From the IMG/VR virus record IMGVR_UViG_2711768011_000006: DNA of 39,935 nucleotides. One strand, 5' to 3'. The first letter of the stretch is position 1. Every line of letters starts with the position of its first letter. The DNA is from a virus. Its lineage: Duplodnaviria; Heunggongvirae; Uroviricota; Caudoviricetes. Below the pieces are notes generated by a model that did no database searches, was not told the DNA's origin, and was given only the letters and a program-made list of their open reading frames with translations. The translations under genes were made by a program, and so were the position numbers. Positions 1-36,892 of the stretch are shown here, one piece after another.

Positions 1-306
1 CTCTCGTCTGGGGAATATCTCCCCGGCAGCCTTCAGGGAAAAATATCATCAGATGGCTGCTTAAAAAAAGAACAAATGGTAGTGTCCGCTATTGCCAGTA
101 CACCTCAGCTATTACCTTCTTCAGAGAGCCCCCAGCTACTTCCTGTGACTCTCGATGCAGCTGCCGAACAGCCAGAATCGCTCGCAGAGGACCCGAAAAC
201 CCTCAGTATCAGCTGTGAGGTAACGTTCCGGCACGGGACGCTCCGCTTCAATGGCAATGTCAGCGAAAAGCTCCTGACTCTGCTGATACAGGAACTGAAG
301 CGATGA
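1..306 (+). CDS. tnpA: IS66-family accessory protein TnpA (orf1), 5'-partial; reading frame is open from the window edge
   Basis: Frame is open from nt 1 with no stop. The stop overlaps the downstream start (ATGA at 303-306), as is typical for IS66 orf1/orf2. Identity rests mainly on position upstream of a recognisable IS66 orf2. Confidence 0.55.
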   Translation, partial: LSSGEYLPGSLQGKISSDGCLKKEQMVVSAIASTPQLLPSSESPQLLPVTLDAAAEQPESLAEDPKTLSISCEVTFRHGTLRFNGNVSEKLLTLLIQELKR

Positions 307-626
307 TCCCGTTACCTTCCGGGATCAAAATTTGGCTGGTTGCCGGTATCACCGATATGAGAAATGGCTTCAACGGCCTGGCTGCGAAAGTACAGACGGC
401 GCTGAAAGACGATCCCATGTCCGGCCATGTTTTCATTTTCCGGGGCCGCAGCGGCAGTCAGGTTAAACTGCTGTGGTCCACCAGTGACGGACTGTGCCTC
501 CTGACCAAACGGCTGGAGCGTGGGCGCTTCGCCTGGCCGTCAGCCCGTGATGGCAAAGTGTTCCTTACACAGGCGCAGCTGGCGATGCTGCTGGAAGGTA
601 TCGACTGGCGACATATAACCAGGTGA
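303..626 (+). CDS. tnpB: IS66-family TnpB (orf2); C-terminus altered and terminated at the prophage junction
   Basis: Translation MIPLPSGIKIWLVAGITDMRNGFNGLAAKV...FIFRGRSGSQVKLLWSTSDGLCLLTKRLERGRFAWP matches the conserved IS66 Orf2 pattern. The ORF ends ...DWRHITR with a TGA at 624-626, directly abutting the Mu-like end repeats. Confidence 0.85.
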   Translation: MIPLPSGIKIWLVAGITDMRNGFNGLAAKVQTALKDDPMSGHVFIFRGRSGSQVKLLWSTSDGLCLLTKRLERGRFAWPSARDGKVFLTQAQLAMLLEGIDWRHITR

Positions 627-5418: not shown

Positions 5419-5700
5419 GTGAAAAAAAATCTCATTGCATGGGCGTGGTCGAGTGGTCTTATTGAGTTTGGTTACGTCCTGCCGGAAGGTGCATTGCCGA
5501 TAGTTGCCGGAAAGCCTGCCACGGTACGGCATGTGATTGAGGTTATGGCGCGTCATGGACGTGATGAACAGGAGCAGTTACTGGTTCCGGGGATACCGGA
5601 AGCGGTGACGGAGGAAGAAGCCTTTAATGCCATGATTCGGTTCTGCCGTGAGGTTAGACGCCGGGTCAGTTATCCAAACAGAACGAGGACCAGAGGATGA
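5419..5700 (+). CDS. Hypothetical small early protein
   Basis: 93-aa ORF with GTG start, tightly packed (overlaps next gene by 4 nt). Confidence 0.45.
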   Translation: MKKNLIAWAWSSGLIEFGYVLPEGALPIVAGKPATVRHVIEVMARHGRDEQEQLLVPGIPEAVTEEEAFNAMIRFCREVRRRVSYPNRTRTRG

Positions 5701-5969
5701 GTAAAGTCGTACGCATTATTTTCGAATACAAGGAAGATGTTATCTGCAAAAACTCTGATGGCAGCACGCACAGAGGGGTAAGTCTGGATATACGTTCAAC
5801 CGGAATAAAGAAGAAAGATAATGGACCCGCCATGATTTTTGGGGTGGTTATGCTGGCAGAAAGCAGAAACTTCGCAGAGTTTGTGGCAATGAAAGCCAGT
5901 GCATTCATGAAAGACAGAGGCATGGCTTCCGGGGTTATTAACGGTAATGAATTTAATCAACAGGGGTAA
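5697..5969 (+). CDS. Hypothetical small early protein (paralog 1, starts MSKVVRIIFEY)
   Basis: ATG with upstream GAGGACCAGAGG. N-terminus is similar to the next ORF (MSKVRVIFEF). Confidence 0.5.
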   Translation: MSKVVRIIFEYKEDVICKNSDGSTHRGVSLDIRSTGIKKKDNGPAMIFGVVMLAESRNFAEFVAMKASAFMKDRGMASGVINGNEFNQQG

Positions 5970-5973
5970 TTCC

Positions 5974-6267
5974 ATGAGCAAAGTACGCGTTATTTTTGAA
6001 TTTAATCATGTTTCGCATGACGAAAAGTTGGCAGGCAATGACTGTGTTGAAGTGCATGAAAAGATTGGAGTGGATGTGAAAACAGAACGTGATACGGATA
6101 ACAGGCCGACGTCACTCTGTGACGTTTATGCAAGTATTCTCCAGTATCACAGTCCTGCAATTATTCAGTTTCTCTCAGCGGAATTTCAGGCATCTGCACA
6201 GTCTTTTGGAGCGGATGCCATCATTAAACGCCACCGCGTGCATAAAGCATCAGGCACACTGCAATAA
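5974..6267 (+). CDS. Hypothetical small early protein (paralog 2, starts MSKVRVIFEF)
   Basis: ATG at 5974 preceded by AGGGGT. N-terminal similarity to the upstream ORF suggests tandem duplication. Confidence 0.5.
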   Translation: MSKVRVIFEFNHVSHDEKLAGNDCVEVHEKIGVDVKTERDTDNRPTSLCDVYASILQYHSPAIIQFLSAEFQASAQSFGADAIIKRHRVHKASGTLQ

Positions 6268-6278
6268 GGAAAAACAAA

Positions 6279-6809
6279 ATGGCTAAACGCGTTACAAAAT
6301 TAAAGGCCGCAGCCGAGGCGGCACCGCAGACCCGGGAAGAAGTCAGCCGTGATATCCGCACCCTGGGAGATATTCAGCGAGAGGCGCTGCGCCTGGAAAC
6401 GGCGATGAATGACGAAGTGGCAGAAATCACCGCCCGTTATACGCCGCAGATTGAAAATCTTAAAAAGCAAATCAAAGTGCTTTTTAAAGGGATTCAGGAC
6501 TGGTGCAAAACCAACCGTGATGAGCTGACGAACGGCGGCAAAACCAAAACAGCCAATCTGACCACCGGAACGGTGTCATGGCGGCTGGGAACGCCATCAT
6601 GCAGCGTCAGCCGTGATGTGGAAGGTGTGATTGAAATGCTGCGCCGTATGGGGCTTGAGCGTTTCATCCGCACGAAAGAGGAAGTGAACAAGGAAGCCGT
6701 CCTGGCGGAGCCGGATGCTGTGAAAGGCATTGCCGGTATCAAGGTGAATAAAGGCGCTGAAAGTTTTTATGTCGAGCCTTTTGAACAGGACGCCGGACTG
6801 AATAAATAA
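6279..6809 (+). CDS. gam: Gam-like host-nuclease inhibitor (Ku-like DNA end-binding protein)
   Basis: 176 aa. Strong co-linearity with Mu Gam (LRLETAMNDEVAEIT, NRDELTNGGKTKTANLTTGTVSWR, RFIRTKEEVNKEA, PFEQDAG). Confidence 0.9.
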   Translation: MAKRVTKLKAAAEAAPQTREEVSRDIRTLGDIQREALRLETAMNDEVAEITARYTPQIENLKKQIKVLFKGIQDWCKTNRDELTNGGKTKTANLTTGTVSWRLGTPSCSVSRDVEGVIEMLRRMGLERFIRTKEEVNKEAVLAEPDAVKGIAGIKVNKGAESFYVEPFEQDAGLNK

Positions 6810-6954
6810 CACCGCATTAATCAATTAAATATCACTTCATTTTAATTATGGCGCTCGCGTCAGGGGACTGCTTGCGCCTGAAAACAGAAAATAAGGGTTA
6901 AGAAATATGAAATACGTTTATATCGTCATTAATAATGTGGTGGGGAAATAAATC

Positions 6955-7488
6955 ATGATTGATGCAAAAGTGCTTGAAGGGGTTAAAAACTGGCTGTGTA
7001 TTTATGGCCGCCTGACCTGCGGTGTACTGGCTGAAAAAATGAATATGCCGCCATCCTCCATGGTTTATTTTCTGCGTGATGCGGTTGATGCAGGCGTGCT
7101 GACGGAATGTAACGGTTTTTATGATATTCCGCGTCCCCGCCCGGTGCAGCCGGTTCGTCGCAAATGCAGCCAGGAATCTGCGGCTGATGATGTTCAGTGG
7201 TGCGGCTTCAGAAAATCCCTGCCATGGATTGAGGGGCATGATATTCCGTCGATGGCGTGGGAATTTGCTCAGGGCGTTCTGACCTGTGAAACCGTTTATG
7301 TGGTGGCTGAAGTTGATGAGCAGGCCATGAAAGAAGGCGTGCCCCAGTTTGTGATGGCGTATATCGACATACGCCTGGGCGTCATTATCTGCGGTTTAAG
7401 CGGCTGGAATATCACTGAACATGTTCTGCGCTACCTGATTGTTGACCGGACAGCAGCGCCTGCCGGGATATCTGCGGAGGTGGCGTAA
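6955..7488 (+). CDS. Hypothetical accessory early protein
   Basis: 177-aa ORF with ATG start. Preceded by a 14-codon mini-ORF (6907-6951) and a 145-bp AT-rich gap. Confidence 0.5.
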   Translation: MIDAKVLEGVKNWLCIYGRLTCGVLAEKMNMPPSSMVYFLRDAVDAGVLTECNGFYDIPRPRPVQPVRRKCSQESAADDVQWCGFRKSLPWIEGHDIPSMAWEFAQGVLTCETVYVVAEVDEQAMKEGVPQFVMAYIDIRLGVIICGLSGWNITEHVLRYLIVDRTAAPAGISAEVA

Positions 7489-8003
7489 TGTTCTTTAAAA
7501 CATCAAACCCTTCCGCGCTGGCTGCGTGGCAAAAATACCAGCAGGACTGCCAGAAAGTTAAGGATGAGGCAAAACGCCTTGAGGCCGTGCTGAATGTTGC
7601 GTGCCGGTCGGTATTTGTATCCGGTATCAGTGGATTTTACTTTAAGGGACTGCGTTTTACGGAGGACAAATATCCTTTTCATCGCGACTTATGGCGAAAA
7701 CCGACTGCGTCGAATGGCTGGAGCTGCACACCGCGCACATCACGTATCCCTAAAACCCTGCGTGTTGCCTCTGATGAACTGAACAGTCTGTGGCGTGAAT
7801 ATTCGCCCGTCACGTATGCCAGAACCGATGCGCTGTTGTTCTGGTTGGGTATTGATTTCTCGGCAATCCTGTTTGGCCCTGTGAAGTGGTTCTGCGTTGA
7901 CGATGTGATTTACCTTCAGTGCGGCGTAAAACCCGCAAAACAGAAAATGACCGAAATACTGTCTGATGAGTTTTATGCTGCTGAAAAGCGAGTCAGGGGG
8001 TGA
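7488..8003 (+). CDS. Hypothetical accessory early protein
   Basis: 171-aa ORF; start overlaps the previous stop. Confidence 0.5.
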   Translation: MFFKTSNPSALAAWQKYQQDCQKVKDEAKRLEAVLNVACRSVFVSGISGFYFKGLRFTEDKYPFHRDLWRKPTASNGWSCTPRTSRIPKTLRVASDELNSLWREYSPVTYARTDALLFWLGIDFSAILFGPVKWFCVDDVIYLQCGVKPAKQKMTEILSDEFYAAEKRVRG

Positions 8004-8006
8004 TGC

Positions 8007-8558
8007 ATGATGAAATTACAACCCATGGGACTAAAAGGTCGCGCCCCCGCTCATGTCCGTCCGTGGACACCTGAAGAAGATGCGCTGCTGATTGCGCTTT
8101 ATTCATCCACCCCGGTTAAGGATATTGCTGCCAGAATAAAAAGAACTGTCTGGGCTGTATATAACCGGACTGGTGTATTGCGCAGTTCATACCCGGAGTT
8201 ACTGAAATATAAACACCCAAGATTTACACCTGATGAAGATAAGTTTATTCGAAAAAATGCCAGAACAATGACCTGCCAGCAAATGGGAGAATATCTCGGA
8301 CGTAATAAAGATTCTGTCAGATGTCGGGCAGGAATGATTGGTGCTGGATTAACAAAGTGCGGAGAGTTACGCCCCGGCACGCGCATATCTGATGATGATG
8401 TACGTCTTATACGTGAGCTGCGTGATTCCGATTACCCACGCCGTCTGTCATTCCGGGAAATTGGCGAAAAGTTTGGAATATCTGAACATTCTGCTCACGC
8501 AGTTTATTACCGTCGCCGGACTGCCGAGGACGCTGTATTACGGGAGTTAACGCCATGA
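8007..8558 (+). CDS. Putative DNA-binding protein with repeated HTH-like modules
   Basis: 183 aa with two similar segments (WTPEEDALLIALYS...TVWAVYNRTG and FTPDEDKFIRKNAR...SVRCRAGMIG) plus a C-terminal HTH-like segment (LSFREIGEKFGISEHSAHAVYYRR). Confidence 0.5.
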   Translation: MMKLQPMGLKGRAPAHVRPWTPEEDALLIALYSSTPVKDIAARIKRTVWAVYNRTGVLRSSYPELLKYKHPRFTPDEDKFIRKNARTMTCQQMGEYLGRNKDSVRCRAGMIGAGLTKCGELRPGTRISDDDVRLIRELRDSDYPRRLSFREIGEKFGISEHSAHAVYYRRRTAEDAVLRELTP

Positions 8559-8887
8559 TAACGACCTTATTTGTTGAATCAGATGAACCTCTTGTGTGTG
8601 CCGCCGGAATGCCGCTCTGTGGCGGAACGCTGACCGGCGTTTATTTCGGGGATTTGCGCGGTTATCCCTGGCATTCACTGGATGACGCATTTCCGCCTGA
8701 TATGGAGGCTGTCGTGCTGATTGTTCAGTATGGTGACCAACAGGAACTGCGCATCGGCCATATGGGGTATGAAGGCTTTTTTATTGATGAAGAAACCGGA
8801 GCCTGCCTTGAAGATGAGGACGGACAGGTGACGCACTGGTGCCATCTTTCGGCCTTGCCGGAATTACAGGGGATACATAATGGATGA
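8555..8887 (+). CDS. Hypothetical accessory early protein
   Basis: 110-aa ORF; ATGA overlap with the previous gene and ATGGATGA overlap with the next small ORF. Confidence 0.5.
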   Translation: MITTLFVESDEPLVCAAGMPLCGGTLTGVYFGDLRGYPWHSLDDAFPPDMEAVVLIVQYGDQQELRIGHMGYEGFFIDEETGACLEDEDGQVTHWCHLSALPELQGIHNG

Positions 8888-9023
8888 GCAAATTGTTGAA
8901 TGTCCCACCTGTGGAAATGAGGACCCGGAGTATCTGAAAGAGTGCCCACATTGTGGTGAGATAAAATGTAACCACTGCGATATGGGCGACGACACTGCAT
9001 GTATAAATTGTGAGGATGAATAA
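8880..9023 (+). CDS. Small cysteine-rich zinc-ribbon protein (47 aa; four CxxC pairs); absent from the ORF track because it is under 60 aa
   Basis: ATG at 8880 overlapping the upstream stop. Translation MDEQIVECPTCGNEDPEYLKECPHCGEIKCNHCDMGDDTACINCEDE; stop TAA at 9021-9023, 1 nt before the next ATG. Confidence 0.5.
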   Translation: MDEQIVECPTCGNEDPEYLKECPHCGEIKCNHCDMGDDTACINCEDE

Positions 9024-9024
9024 T

Positions 9025-9312
9025 ATGGAAAAAGAAATCAAATTTGCGCCTAAATCTATCGACGAAGAACTGGCTAAAATCGGCATGCTTGAACGTATGC
9101 GGGACATTATCGAATATGCGATAAAAGAAAATCTTGCAGCCAGAGAAGCCCTTTTGATAATGGAGCGGGAGATTAACCTGATTAAGGATGCTGTATCTCT
9201 GGATAATAAAATAGCCCGCGAGGAATACGTTCGCCGTAGGCTCGGTGTTGATGGTTCAGCAATTCTTACATCTGAACATTATGCAAAAATTTTTAATCTT
9301 TTTCAGCGGTAA
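9025..9312 (+). CDS. Hypothetical early protein (coiled-coil-like)
   Basis: ATG at 9025 (MEKEIKF...); 95 aa, rich in charged residues. Confidence 0.45.
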   Translation: MEKEIKFAPKSIDEELAKIGMLERMRDIIEYAIKENLAAREALLIMEREINLIKDAVSLDNKIAREEYVRRRLGVDGSAILTSEHYAKIFNLFQR

Positions 9313-9532
9313 TCCCCATACAGGCCCGGAGATTGTCGAAATGCCAGTCGGTATTAATATATGAGCCATCCTGGATATCTTCTGCATTTTCCGGGGTAGA
9401 GTTTTTTTGAGCGAGATTGATAATATGTATTGCCTCCTCACGGGAAATCAGCCCCTTATCGAACAGGGTTACCATAAGATTTCCAGCCATTGTGAATGCG
9501 GCAACATCAAGTGCATTTTTTATATCTGACAT
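9293..9532 (-). CDS. Hypothetical protein encoded antisense to the early operon
   Basis: 79-aa ORF with ATG and a well-spaced AAGGA ribosome-binding site on the minus strand. Sits in an otherwise non-coding 290-bp stretch. Confidence 0.45.
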   Translation of the reverse strand: MSDIKNALDVAAFTMAGNLMVTLFDKGLISREEAIHIINLAQKNSTPENAEDIQDGSYINTDWHFDNLRACMGITAEKD

Positions 9533-9560: not shown

Positions 9561-9590
9561 GGCGGTGCGGTAACACCGCCCATTTTTTAT
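9561..9590 (+). terminator. Rho-independent terminator-like hairpin (GGCGGTG-CGGTAA-CACCGCC followed by CATTTTTTAT)
   Basis: Perfect 7-bp GC-rich stem, 6-nt loop and T-run, read directly from the sequence. Confidence 0.6.
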
Positions 9591-9602: not shown

Positions 9603-10115
9603 ATGAATCGCGCTTCCCTGATTACCTTAATACATGTCGCAAAACGCGATCTACAGCTTGACCATGATACCTATACATCCGCGCTGCTGGCAGCCACCGG
9701 CAAATCCAGTTGCCGTGATATGTCACCCGGTGAGTTATCCCGCGTGCTGGATGTTTTCAAAAAACGCGGTTTTAAAGTGCGTCAGAAGCCGGTTAACCGG
9801 GCCTTAAAACCGGGTACGGTGACCGCCAAAATTCGCGCCATCTGGAAAGTGATGCACCGGCAGGGATTTATCTCTGATGGCGGGGAAACGGCCCTTAACC
9901 GCTGGGTGAAATCGCAGACGGCCGCGCAGAACGACGGCGAAGGTGTGGCTAACTGGCAGTGGCTGGAGCAACAACCCGCGCTGGCCTCTGATGTGCTGGA
10001 GCGTCTCAAACGCTGGCACCGCCGCAAAATGCTGGCAGCCCTGGATATGTCGGAACGTGCAGTGATGAGTTATGAGCGTGTTTGCAGGCTGTATGAAAAA
10101 TCATTCCCCCGTTAA
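9603..10115 (+). CDS. gemA: GemA-like protein (Mu gp16 family regulatory protein)
   Basis: 170 aa. N-terminus (RASLITLIHVAKRDLQLDHDTYTSALL) resembles the gp16/GemA family signature. Position upstream of the Mor/C-like gene matches Mu. Confidence 0.7.
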   Translation: MNRASLITLIHVAKRDLQLDHDTYTSALLAATGKSSCRDMSPGELSRVLDVFKKRGFKVRQKPVNRALKPGTVTAKIRAIWKVMHRQGFISDGGETALNRWVKSQTAAQNDGEGVANWQWLEQQPALASDVLERLKRWHRRKMLAALDMSERAVMSYERVCRLYEKSFPR

Positions 10116-10185: not shown

Positions 10186-10608
10186 ATGGCTGAAACACAG
10201 ATGAGCATGTTTGGTGACAGCGAACAGCTGCACGCGCTGATTGACCGTCTGGATGATATTCCTGATGATGAGCTGAAAAAGAACTGGCCCGGCACGCTGC
10301 GGGACCTGGTTGATGTGATCAGTGCTGAACTGCACCGTCAGGGGATTGAACCTGCTCAGGCGGGAATGCTTGCCCGTAAGGTTGCAGCCGCACAGGCCGG
10401 GTACATGGGCGGGCGTGGTTATTATCTCCCGGTCGGTGAATCCCTTTTCACCGAACTGCGCAATAATGAAATTTTTTCCCGCTGGAGCCAGGGCGAAAAA
10501 ATTGAAACCCTGCGCCGCCACTACCAGATGTCAGAGACGCAGATTTACTCCGTTATCCGCAACCAGCGTCGCCTGCATCAGGAACGCACGCAGCCACGGC
10601 TTTTCTGA
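10186..10608 (+). CDS. Mor/C-family transcriptional activator (middle/late gene activator)
   Basis: 140 aa with Mor/C-like features (N-terminal MFGDSEQL, central GGRGYYLPVG, C-terminal HTH TQIYSVIRNQRRL). Located immediately upstream of the lysis genes. Confidence 0.8.
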   Translation: MAETQMSMFGDSEQLHALIDRLDDIPDDELKKNWPGTLRDLVDVISAELHRQGIEPAQAGMLARKVAAAQAGYMGGRGYYLPVGESLFTELRNNEIFSRWSQGEKIETLRRHYQMSETQIYSVIRNQRRLHQERTQPRLF

Positions 10609-18070: not shown

Positions 18071-18150
18071 GGTCAGTGGCGGGGGTCGAACCCGCATACA
18101 TGATCCACCCGGAGGCAGGCACCGACTTTACCAGTTAAGCGTACACTGAC
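18071..18150 (-). other. tRNA-like structured element (acceptor-like stem, D-arm-like and T-arm-like hairpins; no canonical anticodon arm)
   Basis: On the minus strand, GTCAGTG pairs with CACTGAC 66 nt away. A T-arm-like GCGGG-TTCGACC-CCCGC and a D-arm-like GCTT-AACTGGTA-AAGT are present. No 5-bp anticodon stem could be folded by eye. Confidence 0.3.
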
Positions 18151-34837: not shown

Positions 34838-36892
34838 ATGTCAGACTCCAAGTGGAAAATGCTCTCCGCCATGCCCGGAGAGTTTTCAGTCAAGGTTGCC
34901 GGTGGCACGGTGGCATTTATTGAAAGCCCTTTCCGCCCTTCGGGTAATAAAGGGGGGATCACCTTCGCAGACTGCGTGATCCGCTTCAGCACGAAAGAGC
35001 CATTATGGGTAATGCCGGTATCCGGTAATCCCAGTGCAGAAATCACCAGTTCAGGCGTGACTGGCATCATTCCAATCACATCTGACGTGGCCGGAACGCT
35101 CACGCCCTCCGACTGGAATGCACCGGATAACGCCGGGCCTTCCGGTAGCACGAATGGCAGCAGTTCAGAGCCGGAATATTACTTTGTTGTCATTCTCGCG
35201 GGTCAGTCAAATGGCATGGCCTACGGCGAGGGGCTGCCGTTACCGGATTCGTTTGACCGCCCGGACCCACGCATTAAGCAACTGGCACGCCGCAGTACGG
35301 TAACGCCCAACGGTACGTCGTGTACATACAACGACATCATTCCGGCAGACCACTGCCTGCATGATGTTCAGGATATGAGCGGGATAAACCACCCGAAAGC
35401 TGATCTGGCAAAAGGCCAGTACGGGACTGTCGGTCAGGGGTTGCATATTGCCAAAAAACTGCTTCCCTATATCCCACAGAATGCCGGGATACTTCTGGTG
35501 CCCTGTTGTCGTGGCGGGTCAGCATTCACCACTGGAGCCGACGGCTCATTCAGTGAGGCCAGCGGTGCTTCCGCTGATTCTTCACGCTGGGGGGCCGGTA
35601 AACCTCTGTATCAGGACCTGGTAAGCCGCACCAAAGTCGCGCTGGCGAAAAACCCGAAAAACAAACTTCTGGCTGTGGTCTGGATGCAGGGAGAGGCAGA
35701 CCTTGCCTCAGGAAGCCAGCAGCATAATAGTTTATTCACGGCCATGGTTCAGCAGTTCAGAACTGACCTGGCTCCGCTTGCTGCGCAGTGCGTGAGTGGA
35801 AATGCCACCACGGTGCCGTGGATTTGCGGTGATACCACGTATTACTGGAAAAACGCTGGCACCGATAAATATGAGGCAGTATACGGTGGCTACAAAGGCA
35901 AGGAAGCACAGAAAATTTTCTTTGTACCGTTCCTGACGGATGAGAATGGACAGAGCACGCCAACGAATGCTCCGGCGGAAGACCCGGATATTGTGGCTGT
36001 CGGGTATTACGGTGCAGCATCCCGAACCCAGGGCAGTTTTGTTTCGACACAGCGTGACAGCCATTTCAGCTCATGGGCACGCAGGGGCGTCATTTCAGAC
36101 CGTCTGGCCTCAGCTATTATGCTCCATGCAGGGCGCACGGCTGAACTGATGCGTGGGCAGACCGTGACACCACCGGATGAGAAGCCGTCACCTGATACAC
36201 CATCAAAACCGTCCACGCCACCCGCAGACACCACGACGATGAGTACGCTATTTGCTTACCGGGCATCTGAGTCTGAAGGACGGTTGACACCACAGGGTTG
36301 GGCTGCCGGAGGTGGCAAGGCTCAAATCGTGGATGATGCCGGAGCCAGCGGGGGTAAGGCAATGAAACTGACCAAGGAAACAGGAAGAGCCCCCTGGTAC
36401 CTTGAGCATGATGCTGGTAATGGTGCGGACCTGCTGGGTAAAGGTGGTCTTGTCAGTTGTCGTTTTAAACTCGATGGCGCGCTTACGGCTAATCAGTACG
36501 CACTGGCGCTGTACTGGCCGGTTTCTGCCCTGCCGCAAGGGGTTACTCTGGAAGGAAATGCCGGTCATAACCTGCTGGCATCGTTCTACGTACAGAGCGA
36601 TGCCACAGACCTTAACGTGATGTATCACAAAGGAAACACGGCGCAGAACACGAAGCTGGGGTCATTCGGCGCATTTAATAACGAATGGCATACGCTGGGC
36701 TTCCGTTTTGCCGGTAACAACAGTATTGAGGTGACGCCGGTCATTGATGGTAAGGACGGGACACCATTCATGCTGTCGCAGTCTCCGGTCGGCACGTTTA
36801 CGGCAGACAAGTTGCGCGTGACCGATATCACTAAAAATGCGACTTACCCGGTACTGATTGACAGTATCGTGGTGGAAGTGAATAACGCGTAA
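34838..36892 (+). CDS. Multidomain SGNH-hydrolase / sialate-O-acetylesterase-like protein with Pro/Thr-rich linker and C-terminal beta-sandwich-like domain
   Basis: 684 aa. The block YYFVVILAGQSNGMAYGEG matches the GQSN-type catalytic block of the SASA carbohydrate esterase family. A PDEKPSPDTPSKPSTPPADTTT linker follows. Not part of the canonical Mu gene set. Confidence 0.6.
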   Translation: MSDSKWKMLSAMPGEFSVKVAGGTVAFIESPFRPSGNKGGITFADCVIRFSTKEPLWVMPVSGNPSAEITSSGVTGIIPITSDVAGTLTPSDWNAPDNAGPSGSTNGSSSEPEYYFVVILAGQSNGMAYGEGLPLPDSFDRPDPRIKQLARRSTVTPNGTSCTYNDIIPADHCLHDVQDMSGINHPKADLAKGQYGTVGQGLHIAKKLLPYIPQNAGILLVPCCRGGSAFTTGADGSFSEASGASADSSRWGAGKPLYQDLVSRTKVALAKNPKNKLLAVVWMQGEADLASGSQQHNSLFTAMVQQFRTDLAPLAAQCVSGNATTVPWICGDTTYYWKNAGTDKYEAVYGGYKGKEAQKIFFVPFLTDENGQSTPTNAPAEDPDIVAVGYYGAASRTQGSFVSTQRDSHFSSWARRGVISDRLASAIMLHAGRTAELMRGQTVTPPDEKPSPDTPSKPSTPPADTTTMSTLFAYRASESEGRLTPQGWAAGGGKAQIVDDAGASGGKAMKLTKETGRAPWYLEHDAGNGADLLGKGGLVSCRFKLDGALTANQYALALYWPVSALPQGVTLEGNAGHNLLASFYVQSDATDLNVMYHKGNTAQNTKLGSFGAFNNEWHTLGFRFAGNNSIEVTPVIDGKDGTPFMLSQSPVGTFTADKLRVTDITKNATYPVLIDSIVVEVNNA

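Follow-up and report, generated by a model that had tools for sequence, protein, structure and literature searches.

The gam-gemA interval of an Escherichia coli Mu-like prophage: a Mu backbone, a D5-like protein of tandem helix-turn-helix modules, and a small acidic orphan

What are the four small genes that lie between gam and gemA in a Mu-like prophage of Escherichia coli, and what might they do? The question arises in the IMG/VR virus record IMGVR_UViG_2711768011_000006, a stretch of 39,935 nucleotides (nt), here called the window, whose numbering is used throughout unless a position is prefixed by the handle of a related prophage (L002, L004 and so on). An earlier note, made from the sequence alone, had picked out positions 6955-8887, the interval examined here, as four open reading frames (ORFs) without obvious counterparts in phage Mu, one of them with repeated helix-turn-helix (HTH)-like segments. 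The answer is that the finding is real and mostly ordinary: two of the genes are Mu homologs, one is a further member of a phage HTH-repeat family, and one is an orphan of narrow range. The coordinates assigned to the four ORFs in that note are exact, and gam and gemA are indeed the genes that flank them:

6279-6809, plus strand: gam, host-nuclease inhibitor, the left landmark (Pfam Phage_Mu_Gam, E 5.5e-42; 57% identity with Mu Gam).
6955-7488, plus strand: ORF1, homolog of Mu gp11, 177 amino acids (aa), isoelectric point (pI) 4.9 (68% identity over 177/177 aa, E 4e-73).
7488-8003, plus strand: ORF2, homolog of Mu gp12, 171 aa, pI 9.3 (55% identity over 169 aa, E 6e-62).
8007-8558, plus strand: ORF3, D5-like or SANT/Myb-like protein of three tandem three-helix HTH modules, 183 aa, pI 9.88.
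8555-8887, plus strand: ORF4, small, very acidic orphan, 110 aa, pI 4.05, with 2 lysines plus arginines against 19 aspartates plus glutamates (PHROG 6925, unknown function, 2e-51).
9603-10115, plus strand: gemA, the right landmark (Pfam GemA, E 1.8e-28; 46% identity with Mu GemA).

An E. coli chromosome with 100% identity across 6800-9000 has the same four coding sequences in its RefSeq annotation, and similar DNA occurs in 232 of 5,426 complete E. coli genomes. All four ORFs are under purifying selection—the ratio of nonsynonymous to synonymous divergence (dN/dS), taken from orthologs in the E. coli relative L002 and the Salmonella relative L007, is 0.13-0.25 overall, 0.13-0.17 for ORF1 and 0.14-0.18 for ORF4—and they are therefore real genes. 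The genes are closely packed. ORF2 starts 1 nt inside the stop codon of ORF1, a gap of 3 nt separates the ORF2 stop from the ORF3 start, ORF3 and ORF4 overlap by 4 nt (ATGA), and ORF4 overlaps the gene that follows (8880-9023) by 8 nt; these start-to-previous-stop spacings of -1, +3, -4 and -8 nt are compatible with the translational coupling that had been proposed. No NCBIfam model matches any of the four.

A tblastn search of the Mu genome (AF083977) with the proteins of the window identifies the first two. ORF1 occupies the place of Mu gp11, after gam and before gp12; it scores 139.2 bits (cut-off 27; E 5.7e-41) with the Pfam family Gp11_C (PF25754), of which it spans all 78 profile positions, and matches PHROG 1949 at 4e-105. 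ORF2 matches PHROG 2314 at 1.2e-84; one RefSeq record labels it ‘Mu-Gp12 family protein’, and PF26885 (Phage_Mu_Gp12) is recorded on its Salmonella and Serratia orthologs. The idea that all four genes lack Mu counterparts thus fails for ORF1 and ORF2 and, since it has a distant relative in Mu E8, for ORF3 too; it survives for ORF4 alone. Strictly, this is not homology to Mu proteins of known function, for gp11, gp12 and E8 are uncharacterized themselves. Mu gp11 and gp12 are annotated as hypothetical in the Mu record, our literature search found no paper on Mu gp8, gp9 or gp11-gp14, the SfMu paper is silent on these genes, and sequence searches of the PDB with ORF1 and ORF2 returned nothing useful.

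Seen against Mu, what lies between gam and gemA is an ordinary semi-essential early region, mosaic in make-up, of an E. coli Mu-like prophage. Its backbone consists of gam, gp11, gp12, gp13, gp14 and gemA, and the slots between these hold variable genes. ORF3 and ORF4 are extras relative to Mu, sited between gp12 and gp13, where Mu has no gene.

What, then, is ORF3? Two internally similar segments and an HTH-like segment at the C-terminus had been reported in it, and both observations hold. When the 22-sequence alignment of the ORF3 family was cut into three blocks and these were compared profile to profile (hhalign), the first two proved homologous (probability 98%, E 1.9e-13), and the third emerged as another HTH module in shared register, weakly similar to the others (E 1e-3 to 4e-3). 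Structure prediction, one of the checks that the note had proposed, finds tandem bundles as well: the AlphaFold2 (AF2) model of ORF3, with a mean predicted local distance difference test score (pLDDT) of 84.6, comprises three bundles of three helices each. The modules are arranged as follows:

8046-8204, plus strand: R1, first module (aa 14-66).
8205-8366, plus strand: R2, second module (aa 67-120).
8367-8555, plus strand: R3, third module, with the C-terminal helix (aa 121-183).

Within each module, the third helix is the element that varies most across the family (1.54, 1.68 and 1.93 bits), and R3 hardly varies at all in its helices 1 and 2 (0.47 and 0.20 bits). This is the pattern expected of a fixed scaffold that carries a diversifying DNA-reading (or sensor-exposed) surface. 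The protein is strongly basic, with 35 lysines plus arginines against 23 aspartates plus glutamates.

Names already attached to proteins of this kind point in several directions. RefSeq calls ORF3 a ‘SANT/Myb-like DNA-binding domain-containing protein’, and its more distant homologs P0017-P0025 carry precomputed matches to PF00249 and PF13921. Many homologs at NCBI are called ‘AsnC family protein’, a misnomer: the HTH_AsnC-type match is below threshold (18.8 bits versus 27) and the ligand-binding second domain (RAM/ACT-like) is absent, and so the AsnC/Lrp identity is not justified. A PDB sequence search with ORF3 gave marginal matches to homeodomains and Myb only.

The relative that has been studied is protein D5 of phage T5. 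ORF3 belongs to PHROG 323, ‘transcriptional regulator, D5-like’ (5.3e-53, profile positions 80-256 of 319), and so does D5 itself (AAS77164, 255 aa; 1.2e-71). Compared directly, the ORF3 family profile aligns with residues 71-232 of D5 over 147 columns that take in all three modules (hhalign probability 96.4%, E 1.1e-9). According to the T5 record, D5 binds DNA, is needed both for DNA replication and for late transcription, and takes part in shutoff; PMC12630848 cites McCorquodale 1979 for this. Mu has a member of the group as well. E8 (Mu_9, AAF01133.2), an uncharacterized protein of 95 aa, falls in PHROG 323 at 1.3e-28, and by BLASTP its residues 1-92 align with residues 66-168 of ORF3, that is with R2 and R3, at 27% identity (E 2e-7). 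The family at large is extensive: when 1.84 billion representative proteins were searched with the profile of the ORF3 family, 12,863 matched at E<=1e-3, many of them proteins of 300-800 residues with 5-9 tandem copies of the module. Among the multi-repeat relatives that were scanned, there are Pfam matches to Myb and to sigma-70 region 4, and occasional weak ones to GcrA.

We think it likely that ORF3 is a D5-like, DNA-binding early protein, and are less certain of the specific outcome of its action. Most likely, each module would bind double-stranded DNA by its third helix, which is of the recognition type. The protein would act early in lytic development, after induction, and, by analogy with D5, might modulate transcription or replication, or both, of phage or host DNA. 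It is dispensable, and is passed horizontally as a single-gene cassette. The earlier note had suggested a ‘DNA-binding regulator or mimic’. Of these, regulator is the more fitting and the most likely, given the repeated HTH modules, the basic charge and the homology to D5. Known DNA mimics such as Ocr and ArdA are strongly acidic, whereas ORF3, at pI 9.9, is strongly basic, and on charge the mimic half of the suggestion was rejected as unlikely.

Several points weigh against this reading. The relationship to D5 is remote, the aligned columns being about 29% identical, and ORF3 does not have the full architecture of D5; it is without the roughly 70 N-terminal residues of that protein, so its function may differ. 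Pfam Myb/HTH models fall below their gathering cut-offs on ORF3 (PF00249, 19.7 versus 24.4 bits; PF13921, 16.5 versus 22.9 bits). The mutual orientation of the modules in the model is unreliable, as judged by a predicted template modeling score (pTM) of 0.57 and by full-length Foldseek TM-scores of 0.2-0.4. The contexts in which the gene is found vary among phage types, with no consistent partner from which a pathway might be deduced. And DNA binding, the role of the recognition helices and the regulatory outcome are matters that we infer from the fold, the pI of the protein and its homologs.

Comparison of the gam-gemA interval among related prophages, which the earlier note had also proposed, separates ORF3 from its neighbors. 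Salmonella Mu-like prophages keep the order gp11-gp12-ORF3-ORF4, followed by variable cargo. A Serratia Mu-like prophage has no ORF3, and its ORF4 homolog comes directly after gp12. Elsewhere ORF3 travels alone. P2-like Salmonella prophages have a 44%-identical homolog after a Dam-type methyltransferase gene and a gene for a 109-aa protein, where it overlaps with replication gene A at the start of the latter; in Shae_phiSM, a P2-like phage of Citrobacter, a 37%-identical homolog is found between an ead/Ea22-like gene and gene A; and a further relative occurs in an integrase-type prophage, adjoining a ‘Sequestin’ gene. The 109-aa neighbor in the P2-like prophages was considered as a relative of ORF4 and proved unrelated, which leaves ORF3 with no conserved partner. 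ORF3 is thus a separately mobile, single-gene cassette of Mu-like, P2-like and other temperate phages. Divergence tells a similar story: between the window and L002, synonymous divergence (dS) in ORF3 is 0.67, with 73% aa identity, as against 0.17-0.21 and 92-96% in ORF1, ORF2 and ORF4, a difference that suggests that the ORF3 allele was exchanged by recombination.

That the four genes nonetheless form one co-functional, operon-level module of interdependent parts strikes us as extremely improbable. Their stop and start codons overlap or abut, it is true, and the order gp11-gp12-ORF3-ORF4 is conserved in the Mu-like prophages of both E. coli and Salmonella. Tight coupling is the rule along the entire Mu early operon, however, and the distribution of the genes already contradicts the idea: Mu has gp11-gp12 without ORF3 and ORF4, Serratia has gp11-gp12-ORF4 without ORF3, and P2-like and other prophages have ORF3 homologs without the other three. 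The interval is not a single four-gene unit.

The company that ORF3 keeps in some of these phages raises another possibility, namely that it is a GcrA-like, methylation-aware transcription factor that reads N6-adenine-modified DNA (Dam or Mom-type) and steers RNA polymerase. The homolog in P2-like Salmonella prophages lies two genes 3' of the Dam-type methyltransferase (PF02086), the same repeats occur in mycobacteriophages under genes annotated as DNA methylase or HNH endonuclease, some multi-repeat relatives have the weak GcrA matches mentioned above, and the prophage in the window itself encodes com and mom. We consider this very unlikely, all the same. The Mu-like, Citrobacter P2-like and L014 contexts of ORF3 include no adjacent methyltransferase, ORF3 itself gives no match to the GcrA profile (Pfam PF07750), and the C-terminal domain through which GcrA binds sigma-70 has no place in it, three HTH modules and one short helix filling all 183 residues.

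ORF4 is a different matter. Its homologs are found in Escherichia, Salmonella and Serratia only, none with a Pfam domain, and a PDB sequence search found no relative. Membership in DUF551 (PF04448) was tried and rejected: the match scores 14.6 bits versus 22 (E 0.062), and 12 of 13 family members have no match. The AF2 model, built on an alignment of 13 sequences, is rich in beta structure and unreliable (pLDDT 55). ORF4 is a separate, small, acidic accessory protein, and its composition invites the idea of a DNA mimic, of the Ocr or ArdA type, or of an inhibitor of some other kind.

Might ORF3 and ORF4, or one of them, act instead in the conflict between phages and host defenses, ORF3 being sensed by, or titrating, sensors of the retron msDNA (multicopy single-stranded DNA) type, and ORF4 acting as a DNA mimic or as an inhibitor of a host DNA-binding protein of defense or repair? 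A 2026 preprint (bioRxiv 10.64898/2026.07.11.737809) reports that T5 D5 triggers the type IX retron-Kva2 and has mild toxicity by itself, and its authors ascribe the triggering to an AlphaFold3-predicted contact between a D5 HTH and msdDNA. Hypervariable recognition-type helices on a conserved scaffold, and the apparent swap of ORF3 alleles, are compatible with an arms race, although variable recognition helices are equally to be expected from plain diversification of DNA specificity. The slot adjoins gam, an anti-nuclease gene, within a region of variable accessory cargo, and the 19 acidic residues of ORF4 to 2 basic ones suit a mimic. The model of ORF4, at pLDDT 55, is unusable as a guide to its surface, and ORF3, being basic, is not a mimic itself. 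ORF1-ORF6 (ORF5 and ORF6 being the gp13 and gp14 homologs) and the reverse-strand ORF gave no match to any defense model in PADLOC-DB at E<=0.01, which is weak evidence, since that library consists of defense rather than anti-defense proteins. On balance, a role in conflict seems to us unlikely.

A broader proposal along these lines would be that ORF3-type proteins are a horizontally exchanged early class of temperate phages whose hypervariable recognition helices are shaped by conflict rather than by housekeeping regulation—by binding to or sensing by retron msDNA, or by the silencing of rival prophages or host loci—with ORF4 as partner or antidote. This we hold to be decidedly doubtful. If it were true, the Mu semi-essential region would be an island of anti-defense and inter-phage competition, and ORF3 alleles would be its specificity variants. 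The reading we prefer remains that of a D5-like early protein that probably binds DNA.

In Salmonella relatives, just 3' of the ORF4 homolog, at L007:6040-6987 and L009:2624-3700, the cargo includes genes for a dATP/dGTP pyrophosphohydrolase (PF04447), possibly with a function in the nucleotide pool or in anti-defense.

The slot to the left of ORF1, between gam and gp11, appears to have lost a gene. The note had recorded a mini-ORF there, of 14 codons and ending 3 nt before ORF1, and it is present (MKYVYIVINNVVGK). The remaining features of the neighborhood, on this side and on the far side of ORF4, are these:

6810-6906, plus strand: conserved gam-gp11 intergenic segment, with a GC-rich inverted repeat (GGCGC at 6850-6854, GCGCC at 6874-6878) and the ribosome-binding site (RBS) of the mini-ORF; aligns with Mu 6326-6423.
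6907-6951, plus strand: mini-ORF, 14 codons, probable remnant of a deleted gene for a 180-192-aa protein; RBS and ATG shared with L004:2608-3150.
8880-9023, plus strand: homolog of Mu gp13, 47 aa, 8 cysteines, zinc-ribbon-like (88% identity to the C-terminal 41 residues of Mu_13, E 8e-22; PHROG 5584, 3e-26).
9010-9312, plus strand: homolog of Mu gp14 (48% identity over 99 aa to Mu_14, E 8e-28; PHROG 6075).

Four sister prophages, L004, L002, L007 and L008, have a homologous gene of 180-192 codons between gam and gp11. In the window, the 100 nt from the gam stop to the mini-ORF ATG (6810-6909) are 92% identical with L004, and alignment with L004 resumes at 6953, just 5' of the gp11 start. The 43 nt that follow the mini-ORF ATG have no clear counterpart in L004, gap-permissive alignment producing only scattered short matches. 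The RBS of gp11 (GGGGA) lies within the mini-ORF. The mini-ORF is probably the scar of an imprecise deletion of the 180-aa gene; support for this reading comes from the RBS, the ATG and the 100 nt upstream that the two have in common, the 43 internal bases adding nothing to it. Mu lacks the gene as well, and its conserved intergenic sequence leads straight into gp11.

The products of the slot genes at L004:2608-3150, L008:3392-3946 and L007:3368-3946 share a C-terminal ‘...HSEYVALTE(E/K)’ motif, and the one in L007 matches Pfam DUF5420. The intergenic DNA that follows gam (6835-6900; Mu 6340-6420) is conserved between the window and Mu although the flanking proteins are merely 57-68% identical. 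Its inverted repeat has no match in Rfam, an RNA fold energy that is not significant against shuffled sequences (z -1.1), and no resemblance to a terminator.

To the right, the gp13 homolog marks the edge of the ORF3-ORF4 insert; it is unannotated in the RefSeq records of the prophage. Beyond it, between gp14 and gemA, lies a reverse-strand gene for a 79-aa protein (9293-9532, minus strand; PHROG 32893, unknown function) that has no Mu counterpart. Another E. coli prophage has a gene for a DUF2513 protein there instead, likewise on the reverse strand (L005:5280-5627), and the slot looks like one for morons. A terminator-like hairpin and T-run (9561-9590, plus strand; GGCGGTG..CACCGCC, CATTTTTTAT) sits about 13 nt 5' of the gemA start, on the same strand. 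That is an odd location, as transcription of gemA has to accompany or follow that of the early operon.

Just 5' of gam are two further small early genes, 5697-5969 and 5974-6267 (plus strand), whose products begin MSKVVRIIFEYKEDV and MSKVRVIFEFNHVSH. They have no Pfam match, stand in the position of Mu E7 and E8, and look like tandem paralogs. The tblastn comparison with the Mu genome revealed no homolog of E8 at the Mu E8 position in the window.

The window as a whole contains a complete Mu-like prophage, with repressor, ner-like gene, transposase A, B, early genes, a Mor/C-type activator, lysis, head and tail genes, a gin-like invertase, and com/mom. The activator (10186-10608, plus strand), between gemA and the lysozyme gene, is the single member of the Mor/C family, and resembles Mu C (40% identity, 2e-32) more than it does Mu Mor (28%, 5e-14). 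There is no separate C gene, and gp18-gp20 of the Mu middle operon are absent too, which suggests a transcription cascade shorter than that of Mu. Between the gin-like invertase gene and com/mom is a cargo gene of 684 codons (34838-36892, plus strand), with a SASA carbohydrate (sialate O-acetyl) esterase domain (1.5e-13) and DUF6645 (7e-68), whose product may be an enzyme that modifies surface polysaccharides or is associated with the tail. RefSeq places a ‘tRNA-OTHER’ at the equivalent of 18071-18150 (minus strand) in a near-identical prophage; across the whole window, neither a tRNA nor a tmRNA is detected by ARAGORN, and Rfam finds nothing. Both flanks of the window differ from those in strain 600029, where the prophage splits sgrR, and hence the copy described here is at a different insertion site. 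The left flank (76-626, plus strand) has two small ORFs for putative IS66-type accessory proteins.

The ORF3 family already carries a DNA-binding label in both RefSeq and PHROGs, and no new type of system is revealed. The main value of the analysis is corrective and organizational. The interval, in a prophage that is widespread in E. coli, resolves into a Mu backbone with defined variable slots. Three groups of uncharacterized proteins previously unconnected—Mu E8, prophage proteins called ‘SANT/Myb-like’ or ‘AsnC family’, and early proteins of P2-like phages—are tied to T5 D5, the sole member of that group to have been studied. This provides a handle on part of the long-unexplained semi-essential region of Mu, one that can be tested for DNA binding, for the timing of transcription and for the activation of retrons.

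How do these genes compare with systems already known? ORF1 and ORF2 are full-length homologs of Mu gp11 and gp12, equal in position, in order and in the overlap at their junction, and differ from them only in sequence divergence. ORF3 and Mu E8 are both early-operon products of Mu-type phages, but E8 has two modules where ORF3 has three, and is encoded upstream of gam rather than between gp12 and gp13. With eukaryotic SANT/Myb repeats ORF3 has tandem three-helix bundles in common; its Myb scores are sub-threshold, however, and the kinship is at the level of fold or superfamily only. Its fold resembles, too, the DNA-binding domain of Caulobacter GcrA, without the C-terminal domain of that protein. 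A further parallel is with T5 D5, a documented DNA binder, which like ORF3 is an early phage protein and shares with it both PHROG 323 and an alignment that spans three modules. D5, though, serves a virulent phage, is encoded among replication genes and is required, whereas the phage of ORF3 is temperate and transposable, and ORF3 itself is dispensable at the level of the lineage.

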